Source: a virus (Duplodnaviria; Caudoviricetes). From it: DNA of 64,000 nt. The translations under genes were made by a program, and so were the position numbers. Below are positions 19,923 through 61,712 of the stretch, piece by piece; the first letter of the stretch is position 1; each line of letters opens with the position of its first letter. The stretch is taken from the IMG/VR virus record IMGVR_UViG_3300001580_000017, positions 1 through 64,000 of that record. One strand, given 5' to 3'. The notes beneath the pieces were generated by a model, which worked only from the letters and a program-made list of their open reading frames with translations, was not told the DNA's origin and made no database searches.

Positions 19923-20258
19923 ATGTTAAAAATTTATGGTAGAAGAACCAACGAAGCCAAAGCTCTGATGAAAGAATTGACAGAAGAGAACTATAAAGAA
20001 CAACTGATTGATAGAATAAACAAAAATGCAGAAAAACTCACAGAAGAAGTAAAAGCAAGAGATACACACGAAGAAATGATAAAGTGGTTTATTAAGGTAA
20101 TAGAACAGGATAAACAGCAAGTAACGCGGATGGTAGCAGAAGAAACTGGTGATATGTACTCTGCTTGCTGGGTGGTATTGGATGGAGAAAAAGACTTGAT
20201 AAAATTGTTAAACGATGATTATGGTTGGTATATCGAGGAACATCTCTCGCGAAAATAA
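19923..20258 (+). CDS. Hypothetical early protein
   Basis: GGAGAG SD and ATG at 19923; the track start at 19866 lies within the promoter. Confidence 0.7.
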   Translation: MLKIYGRRTNEAKALMKELTEENYKEQLIDRINKNAEKLTEEVKARDTHEEMIKWFIKVIEQDKQQVTRMVAEETGDMYSACWVVLDGEKDLIKLLNDDYGWYIEEHLSRK

Positions 20259-20711
20259 AGCGATCTCTCCATTGTCCTTATATATTTTTTTCAATATAGT
20301 TCTAACAACCATTCGTTTTTCTTTTCCCCCATCATCAAAGGAATCAACTATTATTTTAACATTATAGTTTTCAAGATGCAAACATATTTTGACATATCCG
20401 TTTGCTTGTCTCTTTTTTAATTTTTGATATGCTACTAAATTTATTTTATTTTTGATATGTGAAAGTTCGGAATCATCAGGTACACCAAGTTCATCAATGA
20501 GATGTTTTATTCCTGTAAGAACTCCAGCTTCATCCAAATCATTCATTGACCGATCATACCGAATATCATCAATATGAGTGGTTTTTCCCCAATCTCCGTT
20601 TCTGCTGAAGTAAATGTCCCATCCGCTGTAGTTTTCTTTATAGATAGCCTGTTTATAGTCTTTTGGATGTTCTAAAAGGAGATAGTATTGTTCCATTAGG
20701 ATTTTATTCAT
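20208..20711 (-). CDS. Putative internal protein, possible toxin-like RNase fold
   Basis: Leader MNKILMEQYYLLLE; H..R and C-terminal VVRTI only weakly suggestive. Confidence 0.4.
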   Translation of the reverse strand: MNKILMEQYYLLLEHPKDYKQAIYKENYSGWDIYFSRNGDWGKTTHIDDIRYDRSMNDLDEAGVLTGIKHLIDELGVPDDSELSHIKNKINLVAYQKLKKRQANGYVKICLHLENYNVKIIVDSFDDGGKEKRMVVRTILKKIYKDNGEIALFSREMFLDIPTIIIV

Positions 20712-38481: not shown

Positions 38482-39706
38482 ATGATAAGAACAAGCAAGC
38501 ATATATTAAAATTCGCTAACAAAAATAAATTAGATATGCTTGAACAAATTTATTCTGATTGCAAGAAACAAATTGAAGTTTATATTGATCAAATTGTATC
38601 CGATAAACTTGAATTAAAAAAGATGATGAGTAGTAAGTTATTATCAAATGAATATATCGAGCAATCTAAATGGAAACAAATGTGTTATGAACAAACATCA
38701 GAAATAATAAGAAGTCAGTATAAAAAAGCATCAAATAAAAGATTTAATGTTTACAAAAAGATTTATGCTAAATTAAAAGAACAAAATAGATATAATAAAT
38801 TTATATCAAAGAAATTCTCCGAGTTAAATTTAAAACCAATTCAAACCACGAAATACTTAACTAAACCGAAATTAAATAATATCAGTATTATTATTCATCC
38901 GGAATTACTAAATTTTACATCTGACTCCAACAACTTTGATTCTTTTGTGAGATTAACTGCACCATATAAAAAGAAAACAAATAAAATAAGAAATCACTAT
39001 CAAACCATCAATCTTCCAATCAAGTATCATTCTCAATCAAATAAATTTAGAACTTCTGGTTGGAAGTTAAAGAACTCTATTTCTTTGATCAAAGTCAATA
39101 ATAATTTCTATTTTGATCTATTTTGGGAGAAGGAAGAAGTTGTGAAGAAAGTAAAAGGAAAGCAAATAGGATTAGATTGCGGTTACAAAAAATTACTCAT
39201 TTCATCGGATAATAAAATTTATGATTTGGGTTTAGAAAAAATCTATGAGAAGTTATCAAGAAAGAAACAAGGATCAAAGAATTTTAAACAAGCTTTAACC
39301 GAAAGAGATAATCTAATAAATCAAAGTATAAACAAACTCGAAACAGAAGAAATAAAAATAATTGTAGTTGAAGATTTAAAGAATGTAAAGGCAGGAAGTA
39401 AGTTTAGTAAAAAATTTAACAATAAGCTACAGAGATGGAGTTATCCAAAGGTTTTGAATAAACTATCTATGATTTGTGAGGAACAAGGTATTAATTTAGT
39501 TAGAGTTGATCCTGCTTATACAAGTCAAACATGTAGTGGGTGTGGATTTAAAGATAAAGACAATCGTAAAGCCGAGAAGTTTTTATGTTTGGGTTGTGGA
39601 TATGAAACTGATAGTGATTATAATGCTTCAGTGAATATTCTACATAGAGGCATATATAGTTCCTCTACCGAGAATAATAAAGCTAATTTAAAGGTTAGCT
39701 GACTGT
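38482..39706 (+). mobile_element. tnpB: TnpB-only element (CDS 38482..39702) with right end at GACTGT
   Basis: GLDCG, VVEDL, CxxC..CxxC, DSDYNA; 3' end shared with tnpB-3 up to 39706. Confidence 0.9.
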
Positions 39707-40845: not shown

Positions 40846-41346
40846 TTATTCTTTATGATATGTATCCAACCCAGTTTTAAGTTCATCTTGAAGTTCTTCC
40901 AGATACTCTTTTTCAAATTCTAAATTAAAATCTCGCAAATGGCGCAAGGAAGTACCATGTTTTTTGAAATCTATGATGTCATTTTGAATTTCTTCAATTT
41001 CATCTTTTATAGAATCTTCTTTTAATTTTAAAAGTTTTTTCAAAAAACTCAAGTCAGATTGTGAAACTTTTCTTCGTTTCGCTTGTTCTACCCAATCTCT
41101 ATATTCTTTTAACTGAGCATCTGATCCCAGCATTGCTTCTTCAATTGTATCTTGAATTTCTTGTATATCATCTTCACTTGTCCATCCTATATATTTAGCA
41201 ATTTGTGATATAGTTTTACCATTCAAAAAACTATCTACTATTGCTCCAGTAAAATCATGTTCATCAGTGTATTCATCATAGTATTTATCATAAAAATCAC
41301 TTTCAAGAACTATGTCAGAATATGCTTCTATTAATTTGTTACTCAT
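40846..41346 (-). CDS. Putative internal head protein
   Basis: Leader MSNKLIEAYSDIVLES; own late promoter at 41365..41372. Confidence 0.55.
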   Translation of the reverse strand: MSNKLIEAYSDIVLESDFYDKYYDEYTDEHDFTGAIVDSFLNGKTISQIAKYIGWTSEDDIQEIQDTIEEAMLGSDAQLKEYRDWVEQAKRRKVSQSDLSFLKKLLKLKEDSIKDEIEEIQNDIIDFKKHGTSLRHLRDFNLEFEKEYLEELQDELKTGLDTYHKE

Positions 41347-41364: not shown

Positions 41365-41372
41365 TATTTATA
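41365..41372 (-). promoter_or_regulatory. T4-type late promoter TATAAATA
   Basis: Exact octamer overlapping the upstream stop codon. Confidence 0.7.
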
Positions 41373-42270
41373 AAATATCCAAAAAAGTTTCTTTGGTTGG
41401 TTCGCCATCTAATATATATGGTATGATTTCTTTGTAATTTAATTTATCCATACAGTAATCATAAATTTTTGGATGAGTAGTTTTCATTTTATCAAACCTG
41501 TTGGGGCAACCATCTTTTTGTAAGCCGTATAAACACCACATACAGCCAGTTCTCGTGTATCCCTTATCGTAAATAGAAGAATATTTTAAATTATATTTTT
41601 TAATATATTCCCATATATCTGTTTCATTCCAAAACGACAACGGTGCACTCGTGGCTCTTTTCTTGTCAAAGGCATTACACCCATATTTGATCCATTGCAT
41701 TTTTCTCATTTCTGATTCTGATGCCATTGTTCCAATAATAGGATGAACTTCGTTTTCTTTTTCATAATTTTTCAGTGGATTTTTCTTTAAATAATCACAG
41801 CATTTATCGCTGATTTTGAATGGAGCATCTAAAAGAAACATCCATTTTTTTGAAACTGATCCTCTTCCACCATTAGTTCTGTATAATCTTAATTTTTCAC
41901 TTTTGGTGTTTCTTGCTTCATCAATATAATTAGATTGTTCCTTACTCACAACGGGATATCCATATTTTTCTATTATTTTGTTGAATGGTACTTTCGGTTT
42001 AATTATATCAACATTTGGAACGGTATTAACAAATTCCACTATTTCTGGAAATTCTAATCCCGTGTTACAAAAAACTGCTTTCATGTTTGGATAAATTCTT
42101 CGACATAAATGTAGCAGAACAGTAGAATCTTTTCCTCCAGAGAAAGAACAGTAAACATCTCCCTTGAAATGTTCATAAAACTCTCTTATTCTTAATAAAG
42201 TTTTTTGTTCTTTTATTTCTAATGGAAGCTTAAACATCCACTGATTACTACTTTTTTCTGTTGCCATCAT
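41368..42270 (-). CDS. PAPS-reductase-family (PP-loop, Fe-S) protein
   Basis: SFSGGKDS, NTGLEFPE, CCDYLKK, RTGCMWC; ends TFLDIL. Confidence 0.88.
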   Translation of the reverse strand: MMATEKSSNQWMFKLPLEIKEQKTLLRIREFYEHFKGDVYCSFSGGKDSTVLLHLCRRIYPNMKAVFCNTGLEFPEIVEFVNTVPNVDIIKPKVPFNKIIEKYGYPVVSKEQSNYIDEARNTKSEKLRLYRTNGGRGSVSKKWMFLLDAPFKISDKCCDYLKKNPLKNYEKENEVHPIIGTMASESEMRKMQWIKYGCNAFDKKRATSAPLSFWNETDIWEYIKKYNLKYSSIYDKGYTRTGCMWCLYGLQKDGCPNRFDKMKTTHPKIYDYCMDKLNYKEIIPYILDGEPTKETFLDIL

Positions 42271-44630: not shown

Positions 44631-45269
44631 TTAACTATTCAGTTTTTGAAGTGCCACCATCTTTAAAGCTCGTATTTCTGTTGGTGTAAATTCAGAAATA
44701 ATCTCCGTTGTGTTGATATCCGGAGTTTTAAAAATAAAAGGTCTGTTTCTCACTGTGCTATAAAATTCTCCATCTTTTCCGAACATCGGTGATCCCAATT
44801 TAACTTCCACCCCAATTTCACCGAATCCCGGATAAGCTCCGCATTTATTTGTACTGATGAGATAATATTCTCCACTCGCTTTTGCATAGGTAATACTGTC
44901 TTGCCAATTCATTGTTCCGAGTACAATTAAATGGTTTTTTAATTTTCCTGTATCTTTTATATCAACCACAAATAAACTTTTTTCTCTTACACGAATTTCT
45001 GGTAAAGTTTCATGTTTAAAAATTTCAATATAGAAACCATCAATATCAGTTACAGAATACCCCAAACCAATTAAAATTGCTCTCAGTTCTCGGTGATTAT
45101 CCATTTTCTTTTTATATGGTATTCTTATTTTATCTTCGCCACATCCTTCATAAGTTCTAAAAGCACTTATAGTTCCACAATCAGGGTTCTTTGCAAAATC
45201 ATCCAATCTTCTGAGACTGCTTTCTTTAATACTTTTGCTACAATACATTTTTAACAATTTTTCATTCAT
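44631..45269 (-). CDS. Putative internal protein
   Basis: Leader ...SKSIKES; GTISAFR...QDSI pattern. Confidence 0.55.
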   Translation of the reverse strand: MNEKLLKMYCSKSIKESSLRRLDDFAKNPDCGTISAFRTYEGCGEDKIRIPYKKKMDNHRELRAILIGLGYSVTDIDGFYIEIFKHETLPEIRVREKSLFVVDIKDTGKLKNHLIVLGTMNWQDSITYAKASGEYYLISTNKCGAYPGFGEIGVEVKLGSPMFGKDGEFYSTVRNRPFIFKTPDINTTEIISEFTPTEIRALKMVALQKLNS

Positions 45270-46511: not shown

Positions 46512-47480
46512 TTACAAAAATTTAAGATTATTCGCCAAATGTACCAAACAAGCTCGAAGTATAATTAATGAGTCTGTACATATTCCATTATCAGCTACAT
46601 ATTTTCCAAGTATTAAAGTTGCTTTGGATATGTTTTCGTCATCAGATTGAATTATGTTATACATTATACTATCGAACTCTCGGAAGAATGTGTTGGCATC
46701 TGTATCTATTGCAATTTTTCTCAGTTCTTTTATATTTTTTGATTTCAGGGCAGAAACCAGTTCATCTGTTACACCCTTTCCCATATCAAGAATTTTGGCA
46801 TCAACTTTTGACCGATTATACATTATGCTATACTGATGAAGGGTTGCAATTGTCTTTCTGAAATCTGGAAATTTTTGAATAATTAGTTTTTGAATTACAT
46901 CTTCGTCATATTCAATGTTTTCATTTTGCAGAATATAAAATAATCTTTTTCTGAATGCCAAAGCAAGCTGTCCACGTTCTTCTCTGTTAGCTGGTATCAG
47001 ATTGAATAATCCTTGAGATAATCTTGATCTGAGTGGTTCTATGATAGCAGATTCATTGTTTGTACTCAATATGAATCTTGCCACATGTTCAAGTTCCTCT
47101 ATTGTAACTTTAAGGGACATCTGCAAAGCTGGTGTCATTTGCTCCGCTTCATCAATGTAAATGAGTTTGTATTTGAATGTTTTATCGGCATCGGCGTAGG
47201 TACTGGCATATTTAATAATTTTATCCAGATTGGCTATTCCTCTATCTTCCCTGCTTGATCCGTTTAGATACATCATATCAGCATTTAATTCTGTTTGAAG
47301 CACTTTGACAAGTGTAGTTTTTCCTGTTCCCGAATTTCCATATAAGAGCATGTTCGGAAGATTTTGTTCTTTGATACAACTCTCAAAATAATTTCTGATA
47401 TTGTTTGTGAGTATGCAGTCCTTTAGTGTTGGTGGTCTCCATTTCTCTACCCATATGCTTGTGTCAGTTGTTTCTTTCAT
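46512..47480 (-). CDS. gp44: Clamp loader ATPase subunit, gp44-like
   Basis: WVEKWRP, GNSGTGKTT, IDEAE, PLRSR, FPDFRK. Confidence 0.93.
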   Translation of the reverse strand: MKETTDTSIWVEKWRPPTLKDCILTNNIRNYFESCIKEQNLPNMLLYGNSGTGKTTLVKVLQTELNADMMYLNGSSREDRGIANLDKIIKYASTYADADKTFKYKLIYIDEAEQMTPALQMSLKVTIEELEHVARFILSTNNESAIIEPLRSRLSQGLFNLIPANREERGQLALAFRKRLFYILQNENIEYDEDVIQKLIIQKFPDFRKTIATLHQYSIMYNRSKVDAKILDMGKGVTDELVSALKSKNIKELRKIAIDTDANTFFREFDSIMYNIIQSDDENISKATLILGKYVADNGICTDSLIILRACLVHLANNLKFL

Positions 47481-53839: not shown

Positions 53840-54052
53840 ATGGAAGAAATTATGAAAAAATTATCAGAATATGCAACTGAACACAACATCACATATCGTA
53901 CCGCATGGAATCATTTTGCGCGAGGATTAATTAGTGGAGCATATCAGCTATCAAATGGCACAGTAGTTATACCGGACAGCAATACTGCCGATTTAGAAAA
54001 AGCTATACATGATTTAAAAAATATAATTACAGAATTAAAAAAAGATAAATGA
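53840..54052 (+). CDS. IS607 TnpA-type HTH domain only (no serine recombinase domain)
   Basis: KLSEYATEHNITYRTAWNHF..G....AYQLSNGTVVI; ATGA overlap with tnpB. Confidence 0.8.
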   Translation: MEEIMKKLSEYATEHNITYRTAWNHFARGLISGAYQLSNGTVVIPDSNTADLEKAIHDLKNIITELKKDK

Positions 54053-55252
54053 TAAGAAGAAGCAAACACATACTAAAATTCGCGAACAAAAATAAATTGA
54101 GTATGCTTGAACAAATTTATTCGGATTGCAAGAAACAAATTGAAGTTTACATTGATCAGATAATATCAGGGAAATTAGAGTTAAAGAAGATGCCGAGCAG
54201 TAGGTTGTTGAGTAATGAATATATCGAACAATCTAAGTGGAAAGAAATGTGCTATCAACAAATGACAGGAATGATTGGAAGTCAATATAAACGCGCATCC
54301 AATAAAAGATTTAATTCTTATAAAAAAGTTTATGCTAAACTAAAAGAACAAAATAGATATAATAAATTTACTTCAAAAAAATTCTCGGAATTAAATTTAA
54401 AACCAATCTATCAAACAAAATATTTTACTAAACCAAAATTAACTGGTGTAAATATAATAGTACACAAAGATTTATTTAATTTTGCATCGGATTCTAAAAA
54501 TTTTGACTCCTTTGTTAGATTAACTACTCCATATAAAAAATCAGCAGGAAGATACAAAACAATAAATCTTCCAATTAAATATCATTCTCATTCCAATAAA
54601 TTTAGAACGAGTGGTTGGAAATTAAAGAACTCTATTTCTTTGATCAAAGTCAATAATAATTTCTACATTGATTTGTTATGGGAAAAAGAAGTCCCCAAGA
54701 AGATTGAAGGAGAATCCATCGGATTAGATTGTGGTTACAAGAAGCTACTTATTTCATCAGAGAACAAAATTTATGATTTGGGTATGGAAAAAATTTATAA
54801 CAAACTAAACAGAAAGAAACAAGGAAGCAAAAACTTTAAGCAAGCATTAACCGAAAGAGATAATTTAATAAATCAGAGTATAAACAAGATTGAAACAGAA
54901 AATATAAAAACAATCGTAGTCGAAGATTTAAAAAATGTAAAGTTAGGAAGTAAGTTTAGTAAAAAATTTAATAACAAGCTACAGAGATGGAGTTATCCAA
55001 AGGTTTTGAATAAACTATCTATGATTTGTGAGGAACAAGGAATAAACTTGGTTAGAGTTGATCCGAGTTATACAAGTCAAACATGTAGCAAATGTGGACA
55101 CAAAGATAAGAAAAACCGTTCTGGTGAACGGTTTTTGTGTTTGAGTTGTGGAATGGAGATGGATGCTGACTATAATGCATCTATAAACATTTTACATAGA
55201 GGCATATATAGTTCCTCTACCGATAAAGCTAATTTAAAGGTTAGCTGACTGT
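54049..55252 (+). mobile_element. tnpB: IS607-like TnpB (CDS 54049..55248) with right end at GACTGT
   Basis: GLDCG, VVEDL, CSKC..CLSC, DADYNA; close paralog of tnpB-2. Confidence 0.9.
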
Positions 55253-56924: not shown

Positions 56925-57902
56925 TTACAAAGAATCAATAAATTCTTTTTCTTTATCGGTCATTGTTCCCTGTTCTTTATCCGTAACAACTGCTGATGCT
57001 GTTGTTTCTACTCCGCCAGTTGTTGGTACTGTTGCACTTTTTTCCCAAGGAGGAGTATCAGATACGGTATGATTTGGGGGAGTAGCTTTAAATGTATCTA
57101 CACCATTTCCCATATCAAGAATATATCCGACTTCTGATCTTATTCTTTCAGGAGTTAAATAATTCAAATTATCAATATGCTCTTGAAGATTATATGTTTG
57201 CAACATTATTTTTTCTATTTCAGCATTATCATTGGCTATTGCGGAAACAGCATTGTTGAAATCTGATCCGTCATAGTTTGGCTGAAATATTTCTTTTCCG
57301 TTCTTTGTCATCTTTTTCACGATAACACTTAGAATAAAATCTCCACCTTTCAGGATATCAAACGGATTATACTGTTTGAATCTTGGATCATTTTTCTGTG
57401 CACTGTCGGGATTATTTCTTTTCAGAATTTTGTTCATAACCTGAATACCATACTCAAATTTGAAAACTTTTCCGTTGTTTTCCGGTTTGTTTGGATCATT
57501 TATAACGAGTATATTTGATACCCATTTTCTCTGAGGAATCCACCCACCATCTTTTGCTTTATCCATCAGAGCTTCGATCTTGGAATTTTTCATTGGCCAA
57601 CCGTAAGCACAAGCGGGGCAACTATTTTTGTTTTTCATGTTACTGCAATAACCACCAAGAAACTTTTTTTCTGTTCCGGGGAAATGATTGATCCCGTGAT
57701 AGTAGGTTTCGATGAAGTTAATTTTTGTGTACACATCAGGAACAAATCTGATGACATAAGTTTCCGATTTGTCTTTTGCAGGTTTCCAGAGGGTTTTGTC
57801 TTCCGCAAAAGAGCTTGGTTTCTGATCCACTTTTAGCTGATTATCAACACTATCTCCAGAATAGTTGTTGACATCAAATTTCACATCAATGTTTCCGTTC
57901 AT
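56925..57902 (-). CDS. gp32: Single-stranded DNA-binding protein, gp32-like
   Basis: VIRFVP, CPAC, NILVINDP..PENNGKVF, YNPFD..GGDF. Confidence 0.92.
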   Translation of the reverse strand: MNGNIDVKFDVNNYSGDSVDNQLKVDQKPSSFAEDKTLWKPAKDKSETYVIRFVPDVYTKINFIETYYHGINHFPGTEKKFLGGYCSNMKNKNSCPACAYGWPMKNSKIEALMDKAKDGGWIPQRKWVSNILVINDPNKPENNGKVFKFEYGIQVMNKILKRNNPDSAQKNDPRFKQYNPFDILKGGDFILSVIVKKMTKNGKEIFQPNYDGSDFNNAVSAIANDNAEIEKIMLQTYNLQEHIDNLNYLTPERIRSEVGYILDMGNGVDTFKATPPNHTVSDTPPWEKSATVPTTGGVETTASAVVTDKEQGTMTDKEKEFIDSL

Positions 57903-58591: not shown

Positions 58592-60082
58592 TTAATTCAT
58601 TCCTTTTAGTAATTTATCTATTTCGTGTATAACCAATTCCAGTTCATTTGCTTTCTTTTTTGCATCTTTTCTGATATTGAACATGTCCTTTACTCTTTTC
58701 GGTAAGATTCCTTTCTTATCTTGCTTATAAAATTCTCCGTTGGGTGTCATCGTGAGATTATGAGATTTTAATACACCACTGAAATTTGTTCTAAAACTTT
58801 CATCATTTGCGAATTTATCCAAAAGAATAGTGAGCATATCCAAAGTGTTTTGTTTTCCTCCACCAGCATAGTTTATAGCTTTTCTTATTTCCCATAGATC
58901 AGGTGTAAGTTCGTTATCTTTTACTATAGTTTCCGGAGAAATATTTGACTGCATAATTTGATGGGGATGAGCAGAGATTATATCTGGGATGATAACATTA
59001 AAATATCTTCCTCTAACAAATCTTCCAACATGACCACCAGCAATTCCAACACGAGGATATTTTTCTTGTGGGATCATTTCGCCATTGTTTAAACAGTAGT
59101 TGTATAAATCGCCACTCCAAAGTTTTATGGCACTCGTGCAATCAGAGGGAAGAACCATCATACTATTAGACAGAAGCATAACCATATCGAGAATGTGTCG
59201 TTTCTTTTCTATGTTGACCATTAAACGAACATCGTGAATATTATAATCAATGAAATGTTCAAAATCATTTTCATATAGATCATGTAATGTTCCGTCATAT
59301 TCAATTTTTTTCTCTCCAAGCTCCGCACTTGCTGCGTCATTTAAAGAATAAAATACTGTATTATTTATTCCTGAAAAATGCATATACAGTTTCATGTAAT
59401 CAAGAATTTGAATCGTATAAATTTTCTTCGTGTATTGATTTATGTTCCCGTCACACCAATTTCTTATTATAGGAGAAATGTTATAGTATTTATTCAACAT
59501 TCTTGTGGTCAAATAGGTAATATCAAAATCATCACTGTTCCAACCAATCAACATCTGAATTTGTTTTTGTTCTAAAAGTTTACACATCAGTTCCAAAAGA
59601 TGTTGTTCATCTACCGCTTCTCTGTAAACTGATTTATTGTTTTTCGGTTTATAATCTTTTAGAGAAAAAGTGATATAAACATCTTTATCGAATGTGTAGA
59701 ATGTTATAGCATTTACGGGGTATAAAGCATCTTTCGGTTTGGGAAATTTATCAGGTGTGTCAACCTCAATATCAAAAAACCAAGCATCTGGTGTTGATAC
59801 AATTTGTTCGTTTTTTCCAAATTTGTGACTAATGAATTGATATTTTGGGGCTATAACTCCGCTCAAATTAGAATGTTCTTTGATGTACTTATTGTATTCA
59901 TAAGAATTATTAAATTCTAATTTATCTACGGCTTTACCATAAATATCTTTTAACTGACCGATTGGTGAATGTTCTCCAACTATGGGTTTAAATCTTTCGC
60001 TTGAGAGTATAGTTTTGTTTAAGTTTTCATCCTTATAACTATACCACATTCTACCATTTTTTTCATATACATTTAAATAAAT
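58592..60082 (-). CDS. gp43: Family B DNA polymerase, N-terminal half (gp43A-like); possible AUU start at 60082, first ATG at 60049
   Basis: DIE, WNSDDFD, YNIHD exonuclease motifs; motif A DIISAHP; ends in the fingers, with no KxxxNSxYG or YxDTDS. Confidence 0.85.
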   Translation of the reverse strand: MYLNVYEKNGRMWYSYKDENLNKTILSSERFKPIVGEHSPIGQLKDIYGKAVDKLEFNNSYEYNKYIKEHSNLSGVIAPKYQFISHKFGKNEQIVSTPDAWFFDIEVDTPDKFPKPKDALYPVNAITFYTFDKDVYITFSLKDYKPKNNKSVYREAVDEQHLLELMCKLLEQKQIQMLIGWNSDDFDITYLTTRMLNKYYNISPIIRNWCDGNINQYTKKIYTIQILDYMKLYMHFSGINNTVFYSLNDAASAELGEKKIEYDGTLHDLYENDFEHFIDYNIHDVRLMVNIEKKRHILDMVMLLSNSMMVLPSDCTSAIKLWSGDLYNYCLNNGEMIPQEKYPRVGIAGGHVGRFVRGRYFNVIIPDIISAHPHQIMQSNISPETIVKDNELTPDLWEIRKAINYAGGGKQNTLDMLTILLDKFANDESFRTNFSGVLKSHNLTMTPNGEFYKQDKKGILPKRVKDMFNIRKDAKKKANELELVIHEIDKLLKGMN

Positions 60083-60146: not shown

Positions 60147-61712
60147 TTACAATAAATCCAAAAAAGTTGGTTTGGCTACCGAATCAATGAAAGATAAAAT
60201 ATGAGAAATAACTTTTATAGTCCATCCGTTTCCCATCAATTTGTATCTGTTAGTTTCTGCCACATTAGCTATAACATAATCAGTAAAATACATATCATAG
60301 AAACCATATAGAGCTTCATTATCTTCTCTTGGTATGATAAACTTCTTTGATGGTTTTTTATCAGTATAAACACCATATAAAGTATAATTATCAGGAACAG
60401 TTTGCAATCTTTCACATTCAAGGGGTGTTAATCTTCTAACTGATTTATTTTGAATAACAGATTGACCCGCTATAGATGTACGACAATGAGGAGTAGTTCC
60501 CAAAGTTTTTGCTTTCTCATCATCTTTTATTGTGTTATTATAATGATCAATTACATTTGCTTTGTTGTCATCATCTAATATTAAATGATTACATCTTGGT
60601 GACATAGCATGAAGTGTAGGATATTTATCTTCTTCTGTTATTTTTTCTTCTTTGTATCCATGAGGAATATGATATAAACCGGTCTTAGCACCCATTCCAC
60701 CAGCAGTTCCAATTAAAGTAACACTTTTTTCTTCTATATCATAAACACGACACCCCTGACTGTTTTTATGTGTCATTATCAGATTGTCTTTTGTTATCGT
60801 TGTCAAAGCATTTGTTTTTTCATCAAAGCGAGGTTCAAGCTGTTGTATATTTTTTCTTTGTTCTTGAATTTCTCCACTTTCATGGGCTTTTCTTATTTCT
60901 TTTCCATATAATGTTCTTTTCGGAGATAGACAAGCTTGTTCTCTTCCTCTGCTTGCTACACAGATGGCATCTTCTTCTCTATTGGTACAAATCAAATCAG
61001 CCGTTCCTCCACCACCAATTTTTAAGGTATCCATTTTATCAGTGTTATCAACATCTCGGAATTTTGCAGAAAATCCCCTGCTGTTTTCAACTTGTCTTTC
61101 GTTGTATTTGAATAATGCATTTAAAGTTTTATCACTCAAATAATATCTATCATCAGCATTCTGTTCAAGTATATCTTTTAATTTTATTCCCTGATCTTCC
61201 GGTTGCTGAATATTTGGGATATTTGTCCAGTAGAGTCGCTGCCTATTTTGTGCGCTTAAATTTGAACTGTTTATCAAAATGGGTTCTACTCCCATATAAT
61301 CGGTTATTTGCTGTTCCCATTCCTTTTTCATTTTGACATTTTCTAATAAAAAATATTTGGGTTTTAATTCTTTTAATAATCGGAGATATTCAAAGAATAA
61401 ACTACTATCTTTTCCTTCTAATCCTCCACCAAGAGAATTGGCATTTGAAAGCTGCGTGCAAGGCGATCCCCCCATCAGCAGGTCAATTACAGGAAGATTT
61501 TCAGCATTTAATTTTGTAACATCACCAAGTTGAACAGTTTCGGGAAAATTAAAATTTGTTACCGCTATTGCATGGGTATCAATTTCCGAAGCATAGTATT
61601 TACAATATTTTATTCCAAGATCATTTAGTGCAAGTTGACCCCCGGAACAACCATCAAATAAACTCAGAACATTTCTTACATAAATTTTATCAATTTTTTC
61701 TACTTCAATCAT
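60147..61712 (-). CDS. C5-cytosine DNA methyltransferase with long variable region
   Basis: SLFDG, GSPC, ENV, QNRQR, RRLTPLECERLQ, GNGW; ends TFLDLL. Confidence 0.93.
   Translation of the reverse strand: MIEVEKIDKIYVRNVLSLFDGCSGGQLALNDLGIKYCKYYASEIDTHAIAVTNFNFPETVQLGDVTKLNAENLPVIDLLMGGSPCTQLSNANSLGGGLEGKDSSLFFEYLRLLKELKPKYFLLENVKMKKEWEQQITDYMGVEPILINSSNLSAQNRQRLYWTNIPNIQQPEDQGIKLKDILEQNADDRYYLSDKTLNALFKYNERQVENSRGFSAKFRDVDNTDKMDTLKIGGGGTADLICTNREEDAICVASRGREQACLSPKRTLYGKEIRKAHESGEIQEQRKNIQQLEPRFDEKTNALTTITKDNLIMTHKNSQGCRVYDIEEKSVTLIGTAGGMGAKTGLYHIPHGYKEEKITEEDKYPTLHAMSPRCNHLILDDDNKANVIDHYNNTIKDDEKAKTLGTTPHCRTSIAGQSVIQNKSVRRLTPLECERLQTVPDNYTLYGVYTDKKPSKKFIIPREDNEALYGFYDMYFTDYVIANVAETNRYKLMGNGWTIKVISHILSFIDSVAKPTFLDLL

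Follow-up and report, generated by a model that had tools for sequence, protein, structure and literature searches.

Gene content of the locus and assembly of the phage genome

The window (the whole 64-kb stretch of DNA that was analysed) comes from the viral IMG/VR record G000, which is 75 kb long and has an estimated completeness of about 40%. The gene under study codes for a PAPS-reductase-like enzyme and starts 7 nt after the RNR gene, inside a block of replication and nucleotide-metabolism genes. The genes of the window that bear on the analysis were the following.

40846-41346: ORF of 166 aa, downstream neighbour of the PAPS-reductase-like gene, no family assignment
41368-42270, minus strand: PAPS-reductase-like PP-loop/Fe-S enzyme, 300 aa; PF01507 (PAPS_reduct), E 2.9e-29; phrog_424, E 3.3e-59
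46512-47480, minus strand: gp44-type clamp-loader ATPase; phrog_168, E 1e-72; PF21328 Gp44_lid
56925-57902, minus strand: gp32-type single-strand DNA-binding protein (SSB); PF08804, phrog_224; ends ...KEFIDSL
58592-60049, minus strand: N-terminal half of the family B DNA polymerase (PolB), 485 aa; exonuclease domain and start of the palm; phrog_262 positions 25-488 of 856
60147-61712, minus strand: C5 cytosine DNA methyltransferase, 521 aa; PF00145, E 4.8e-39; TIGR00675; ends ...VAKPTFLDLL

A T4-type late-promoter motif, TATAAATA (41365-41372, minus strand), precedes the 166-aa ORF and shares sequence with the PAPS-reductase-like gene only at the latter's final Leu codon and stop.

The phage genome had a G+C content of 30% and contained a T4-type replication and recombination module which, besides gp44 and gp32, included UvsW, UvsY, a RecA/UvsX-like protein, a class-II-like RNR and an NAD-dependent ligase. 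Identity to the nearest cultured phages was 36% for gp44 and 28% for PolB, and by this comparison the distance between this phage and the T4-like phages in culture is very large. An ORF of 212 aa upstream of the RNR gene (44631-45269, minus strand) produced a sub-threshold match to an S-adenosylmethionine lyase family (PF23780, E 4e-5), which is odd in a phage that itself encodes two SAM-dependent methyltransferases.

A 128 kb ENA contig carried a copy of the target protein that was 100% the same, and the final 49 nt of G000 matched a second IMG/VR record, G001 (87.7 kb). As G001 showed 100% identity to the ENA contig across an overlap of 40,140 bp, it was assigned to the same phage, and it contributed an extra 47.6 kb of phage sequence. 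ENA ERZ27315072 is among the samples in which the phage is present. Joining of the overlapping contigs gave about 170 kb in total, with 262 non-redundant ORFs and 54,352 residues. No closer relatives of the phage were obtained when loci were searched with the target protein and gp44; the matches were only 34-48% identical, so the C-terminal tag described below could not be tracked through close relatives. The joined contigs added further genes of interest, among them the following.

L021:1246-2460 (= G001:81692-82906), minus strand: C-terminal half of PolB, 404 aa; phrog_262 positions 493-846; ends ...ERIDDFLDNL
L021:260-1246, minus strand: FEN/T4-RNase-H-like nuclease, adjoining the C-terminal half of PolB; PF02739, PF01367, PF09293; ends ...RIVDDFLDNL
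L005:15275-16039, minus strand: N6/N4 DNA methyltransferase; PF01555; ends ...NSLFLDNL

PolB is therefore encoded by two separate genes, which lie far apart and on opposite strands of the assembled map. The N-terminal half aligned with residues 19-500 of T4 gp43 in tblastn, and PHROGs 2062 and 1918 represent the same PolB split in other phages.

The C-terminal peptide and its distribution

The PAPS-reductase-like enzyme ends in ...GEPTKETFLDIL, that is KETFLDIL, and the C5 methyltransferase in KPTFLDLL; both endings had been read in the first-pass annotation and were verified. Its statement that no other ORF of the window ends in this way held for the strict form TFLD[IL]L but failed for a looser one, since the gp32-type SSB ends in ...KEFIDSL. 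The two appended tails were delimited as follows.

41371-41412, minus strand: appended C-terminal tail LDGEPTKETFLDIL of the PAPS-reductase-like enzyme, residues 287-300; core tag FLDIL at 41371-41385
60150-60185, minus strand: appended tail DSVAKPTFLDLL of the C5 methyltransferase

Alignments of homologs to the PAPS-reductase-like enzyme end at about residue 286 of 300, some 14 residues before its terminus. The AF2 model had a pLDDT of 58 over the last 10 residues versus more than 90 elsewhere, with a short helix at 295-298 (FLDI). By these alignments and this model, the conserved fold ends before the tag, which is an added piece carried on a flexible tail. Homologs of the C5 methyltransferase end at a conserved ...HI[FL]SFI, so the tail DSVAKPTFLDLL is an extra in this protein too, and a few of those homologs add ...QDDLF or ...QDELF at that place. 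The stretch SFIDSV was considered as a second copy of the motif in the C5 methyltransferase and rejected, as it is the conserved end of the fold (HI[FL]SFI).

Across the joined contigs the pattern F[LI]D.L, which was defined after the data had been seen, occurred 8 times in the 54,352 residues, and 6 of the 8 occurrences were at the exact C-terminus of a protein against 0.01 expected from the internal rate, with ORFs de-duplicated across overlapping loci. The C-terminal enrichment is far beyond chance. The six proteins were the PolB C-terminal half, the FEN-like nuclease and the N6/N4 methyltransferase together with three proteins of the window, namely the C5 methyltransferase (FLDLL), the PAPS-reductase-like enzyme (FLDIL) and gp32 (EFIDSL). 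All six act on DNA, although for the PAPS-reductase-like enzyme the DNA substrate is inferred. One of the only two internal occurrences lies in a giant ORF of 2,459 aa, probably structural (G001:55230-62609, minus strand). An unassigned ORF of 167 aa (20208-20711, minus strand) ends in ...SREMFLDIPTIIIV and has FLDI six residues before its C-terminus; it was excluded from the six.

At the nucleotide level the tails of the FEN-like nuclease and PolB share the same 21-nt 3' end (GATGATTTCTTGGATAACTTA), and this identity is suggestive of copying or gene conversion of the tail module from one neighbour to the other. The FLDNL of the N6/N4 methyltransferase has the same residues as that of PolB with 3 synonymous differences in 15 nt, which points to selection on the peptide and not to recent copying.

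The first-pass annotation had named LDFL endings for three T4 proteins, and these were present on the T4 record (gp43 ...ASLDFLFG, gp55 ...PSLDFLYEAND and gp33 ...NTLDFLL); T4 gp32 ends in ...DLDDLLNDL. Alignment of the last 90 residues of PolB and T4 gp43 placed DFL under DFL at the extreme end (...IDDFLDNL / ...ASLDFLFG). As in T4 and RB69, the peptide is short, hydrophobic/acidic and carried on a flexible linker at the extreme C-terminus of unrelated proteins that include the polymerase, and its LD-hydrophobic-L core (LDIL and LDLL here) matches the T4 LDFL. The register differs, being F-L-D-x-L-COOH here and S/T-L-D-F-L-F/Y/L in T4/RB69. Among clamp clients, polymerase and flap nuclease are the two that are universal. 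The T4 and RB69 proteins gp43, gp55 and gp33 each bind the clamp through a hydrophobic/acidic peptide at the very C-terminus, these peptides can replace one another, and for RB69 a co-crystal of the clamp with the gp43 peptide has been obtained (PMC2988020, PMC3012046). A clamp motif at the C-terminus is the classical arrangement in FEN-family nucleases; T4 RNase H departs from it with an N-terminal peptide, unlike the nuclease of this phage (PMC3012046). Because the phage's own PolB and FEN-like nuclease end in the same peptide, at the position of the T4 gp43 clamp tail, the tag was assigned to the clamp type. This supports the earlier proposal of a clamp-type tag, as does the presence of genes for a gp44 loader and a gp45-fold clamp, with binding itself inferred.

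The putative clamp, P0271, is a 252-aa ORF on G001 directly upstream of the C-terminal half of PolB and was found only through this position and its fold. Its ESM Atlas model (pTM 0.78) matched viral gp45-clamp clusters with a TM of 0.79/0.86 over 227 residues, and 45-84% of the members of those clusters carry the gp45 clamp domain PF09116. On this model P0271 is a gp45-fold clamp by a fold-level match only, and in this it is unlike T4 gp45, to which no sequence similarity was detectable. No sequence homolog of P0271 was found among 5.8 billion proteins. The gp45 Pfam models PF02916 and PF09116 gave no match in G000, PF02916 gave none in G001, and a phmmer query with T4 gp45 returned nothing in 211 ORFs. 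A single-sequence AF2 model of P0271 was unusable (pLDDT 34). Complex prediction with three copies of the native clamp and residues 256-300 of the enzyme gave a median of 0.33 versus a mark of 0.34, a value that by the rules of the method speaks neither for binding nor against it.

Conservation of the tag in homologs had been proposed as a check, and its outcome was a switch of clamp type, many homologs having a bacterial beta-clamp motif (QRELF, for instance) at the same place. This motif, QL[SD]LF, occurs on Pol II/IV/V, Hda, MutS and others. Among the 120 nearest homologs (54-73% identity), 41 carried Qxx[LMI]F in the tail beyond the domain, while the domain bodies of the 120 had 0 occurrences in 34,619 residues. 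The tails took at least 8 distinct forms, for example QPSLFDEVENE, QLDLFDNLG, SQLKLF, RQLDLF, QMSLFKD and QISMFDL. In 135 representatives that were at most 50% identical to one another, with tails set by pairwise domain ends, the strict motif was found 5 times in 2,949 tail residues versus 3 times in 42,232 body residues (odds ratio 24, Fisher p = 5.6e-5), and about 10 more tails had near variants. In sequence terms, the homolog tail motif is the bacterial beta-clamp-binding consensus. Since homolog tails carry the beta-clamp motif and this phage has the gp45 type, the enzyme family has acquired clamp-type tails repeatedly, of the beta type with the host clamp and of the gp45 type here, although binding is inferred in both cases. 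One beta-motif homolog sits in a phage-like context. Only one homolog reached 73% identity, P0002 on a contig of 1 kb, and its ending is ...NTGLLDL. The clamp tail is not universal, as about half of the homologs have no tail, and the cultured-phage homologs (Tyrion and phiCP34O) have short acidic tails without a clamp motif.

The distribution of the peptide suggests that the tagged enzymes travel with the sliding clamp of replication and have nascent DNA as their target, with clamp binding inferred. Another replisome hub is still possible, though unlikely, because gp32 is tagged, which T4 biology would not lead one to expect; to our knowledge T4 gp32 is not a clamp client. Under this alternative the tail would mimic the gp32 tip and, instead of the clamp, bind what that tip binds, be it the helicase loader, the gp32 core or the primase. 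In this phage gp32 has the ending ...KEFIDSL, in T4 it has ...DLDDLLNDL, and the acidic C-terminal domain of T4 gp32 is a known protein-interaction module (PMC3012046). Also on this side is the homolog of the late sigma factor gp55 (phrog_234; L001:5232-5993, minus strand, = G000 67232-67993), which would be expected to bind the clamp, as it does in T4, and yet ends in ...DSSLSINDSAE without FLDxL; its tail is long and Ser/Asp-rich and only loosely resembles T4 gp55 SPSLDFLYEAND. No gp33 homolog was found in the approximately 170 kb by tblastn. Against a gp32-type hub, the extreme C-terminus of the T4/RB69 polymerase is a clamp-binding element and aligns with this tail, FEN-family nucleases use C-terminal clamp motifs (PMC3012046), and the homologs of both the enzyme and the C5 methyltransferase carry beta-clamp QxxLF tails, not tails of the SSB-tip type. 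Docking on the sliding clamp remains the preferred reading of the tag.

Fold and predicted chemistry of the PAPS-reductase-like enzyme

The AF2 model of the enzyme, built on a 108-sequence alignment, had a domain pLDDT of 95.1. Two groups of conserved residues were located in the gene.

42124-42141, minus strand: PP-loop ATP-pyrophosphatase motif S44-G-G-K-D-S49
41533-41802, minus strand: five family-invariant cysteines C157, C158, C198, C243 and C246 (CC...C...CxxC)

The PP-loop was invariant in the 120 near homologs; in a diverse set of 151 sequences each of its positions was conserved in 144 or more, with K47 (128 of 151) as the exception. The nearest solved folds were APS and PAPS reductases (2goy and 1sur; TM about 0.5/0.65, 19% identity); next came TtuA, NcsA and LarE, which are PP-loop sulfur-transferases. 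The APS reductase of P. aeruginosa (2goy) was the best structural and sequence match among solved structures and has the same CC...CxxC at its [4Fe-4S] site. The CxxC of the enzyme aligned with the [4Fe-4S] ligands of 2goy, and from this alignment the enzyme very probably holds a [4Fe-4S] cluster through CC...CxxC. Unlike APS reductase, the family has C198 as a further invariant cysteine.

Annotation routinely places phage 'PAPS reductases' among the auxiliary genes of sulfur metabolism, and an ordinary auxiliary metabolic gene was weighed here, namely a CysH-type PAPS/APS reductase that boosts sulfur assimilation in the host and has a tail unrelated to DNA. The Pfam and PHROG names, the nearest solved folds and the APS-reductase-like cysteine pattern all agree with such a role. 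The enzyme nevertheless scored far under the cutoff of every CysH, APS-reductase and CysD model. The CysH/APS-reductase models gave 73.9 bits versus a cutoff of 154 (NF002537), 65.4 versus 165.1 (TIGR00434), 51.6 versus 235.3 (TIGR02055) and 39.6 versus 254.2 (TIGR02057). The catalytic ECGLH motif was absent from the sequence after the CxxC, where the conserved residues are T265-H266-P267 and Y272-C273. The gene is located directly after RNR in the replication and nucleotide-metabolism block, its tail is common to a polymerase, a FEN-like nuclease and two methyltransferases, and its homologs carry beta-clamp motifs. A sulfur-assimilation role is thus very improbable; as far as the scores and motifs can tell, the enzyme is not a sulfate-assimilation CysH, in line with what the first-pass annotation had inferred.

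Models of DNA phosphorothioation proteins gave weak matches, with BrxP at 72 bits (7.7e-21), SspD at 35 bits (2.9e-9) and DndC at 16 bits (about 1e-3). The BrxP match covered only part of the 779-position model, and its 72 bits are no better than the 74 bits obtained with CysH, so the chemistry is left open. Like DndC, SspD and BrxP, the enzyme has a PP-loop PAPS-reductase domain with conserved cysteines, while its action on DNA is inferred. It differs from them as a standalone, phage-encoded protein of 300 aa with a clamp tail and without a DndE or a DUF4007 domain. All known phosphorothioate systems require an NTPase partner (DndD, SspC or BrxC) for synthesis (PMC12914056), and no NTPase of the DndD/SspC/BrxC type was found beside the enzyme gene, whose neighbours are RNR and the 166-aa ORF. 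Our best guess is an ATP-activated, Fe-S-dependent and probably sulfur-transferring reaction on DNA, of which both the DNA substrate and the chemistry are inferred.

Proposed mechanism and relation to known systems

The last alternative, that the shared ending is due to chance, to a late-promoter/stop overlap or to a common C-terminal degradation tag, has hardly any weight left: the AT-rich genome makes F, L, I, D and N codons common and TATAAATA does extend over the stop and the final Leu codon of the gene under study, but pure chance is refuted by 6 C-terminal occurrences versus 0.01 expected, the overlap touches only one codon of one gene out of six, the same FLDNL is encoded with synonymous differences and so points to the peptide as the target of selection, and a degradation tag would implausibly be shared by the replicative polymerase and the SSB.

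Taken together, we consider it probable that the enzyme is a clamp-docked PP-loop enzyme that modifies new phage DNA, a reading in which binding, DNA substrate and chemistry are all inferred. The last five or six residues of the enzyme, TFLDIL, would be the sliding-clamp docking peptide of this phage, and a single C-terminal motif, F-[LI]-D-x-L-COOH, would serve PolB, the FEN-like nuclease, the two methyltransferases, the PAPS-reductase-like enzyme and the SSB. By inference, the tail, carried on a short flexible linker, occupies the hydrophobic/basic pocket of the gp45-type clamp in the manner of the RB69 gp43 peptide (structure 1B8H); a clamp that stays behind on DNA just replicated would then let the enzyme travel along the duplex. 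The most likely activity there would be an ATP-dependent, probably sulfur-transferring, modification of the new phage DNA, and the enzyme may join 5mC and N6/N4 methylation in a clamp-coupled modification toolkit of three.

The set of tagged proteins differs from that of T4/RB69, as it includes two methyltransferases, a PP-loop enzyme, a FEN-like nuclease and gp32, while the gp55 homolog is untagged. The 'tool-belt' logic of the tether is like that of the bacterial beta-clamp system, and the beta motif stands at the same C-terminal position in homologs of both the enzyme and the C5 methyltransferase; unlike the bacterial case, the phage has its own clamp and its own motif type, and the clients in question are DNA-modifying enzymes and not repair or replication factors. 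In eukaryotes the DNA methyltransferase DNMT1 is recruited to new DNA by PCNA through an N-terminal PIP box, whereas the phage peptide is C-terminal and of the gp45 type, and no homology is implied. Coupling of a DNA methyltransferase to a clamp is thus known from eukaryotic maintenance methylation, but no open-access description was found for phages. Nor did the open-access literature yield a paper that connects clamp motifs with phage methyltransferases or with phage enzymes of the PAPS-reductase-like kind.

We know of no established function for the phage 'PAPS reductases'. A tail whose type goes with that of the clamp (gp45-type here, beta-type among the homologs) offers a concrete hint, cheap to test, at an activity on replicating DNA, and it would extend the clamp 'tool-belt' to phage enzymes of DNA modification, with binding inferred. 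Through the tag, a large enzyme family whose function has not been established becomes open to direct tests. If confirmed, the mechanism would account for the way in which a lytic phage keeps the marking of its entire genome abreast of rapid replication to escape restriction, and it could lead to a new DNA modification. A wider and more speculative proposal, which we put forward only tentatively and hold to be rather doubtful, is that phrog_424 with its thousands of members consists of clamp-coupled enzymes that install an undescribed sulfur-containing or other ATP-activated mark on nascent DNA, that the clamp replaces the DNA tracking of DndD/SspC/BrxC, and that a three-enzyme toolkit is tethered in this phage.

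Two further observations were made on the genome. At least six TnpB (Cas12f1-like_TNB) copies were present across it, with a DNA identity of 77-84%, at the following positions.

38482-39702, plus strand, and 54049-55248, plus strand: TnpB copies in the window
25.5, 50.2, 65.5 and 72.5 kb of G001: TnpB copies outside the window

Early-gene proteins of the phage were identical on a Logan contig (L017) of SRR942941, an unrelated public run, and the phage or a near relative is therefore present in more than one data set.
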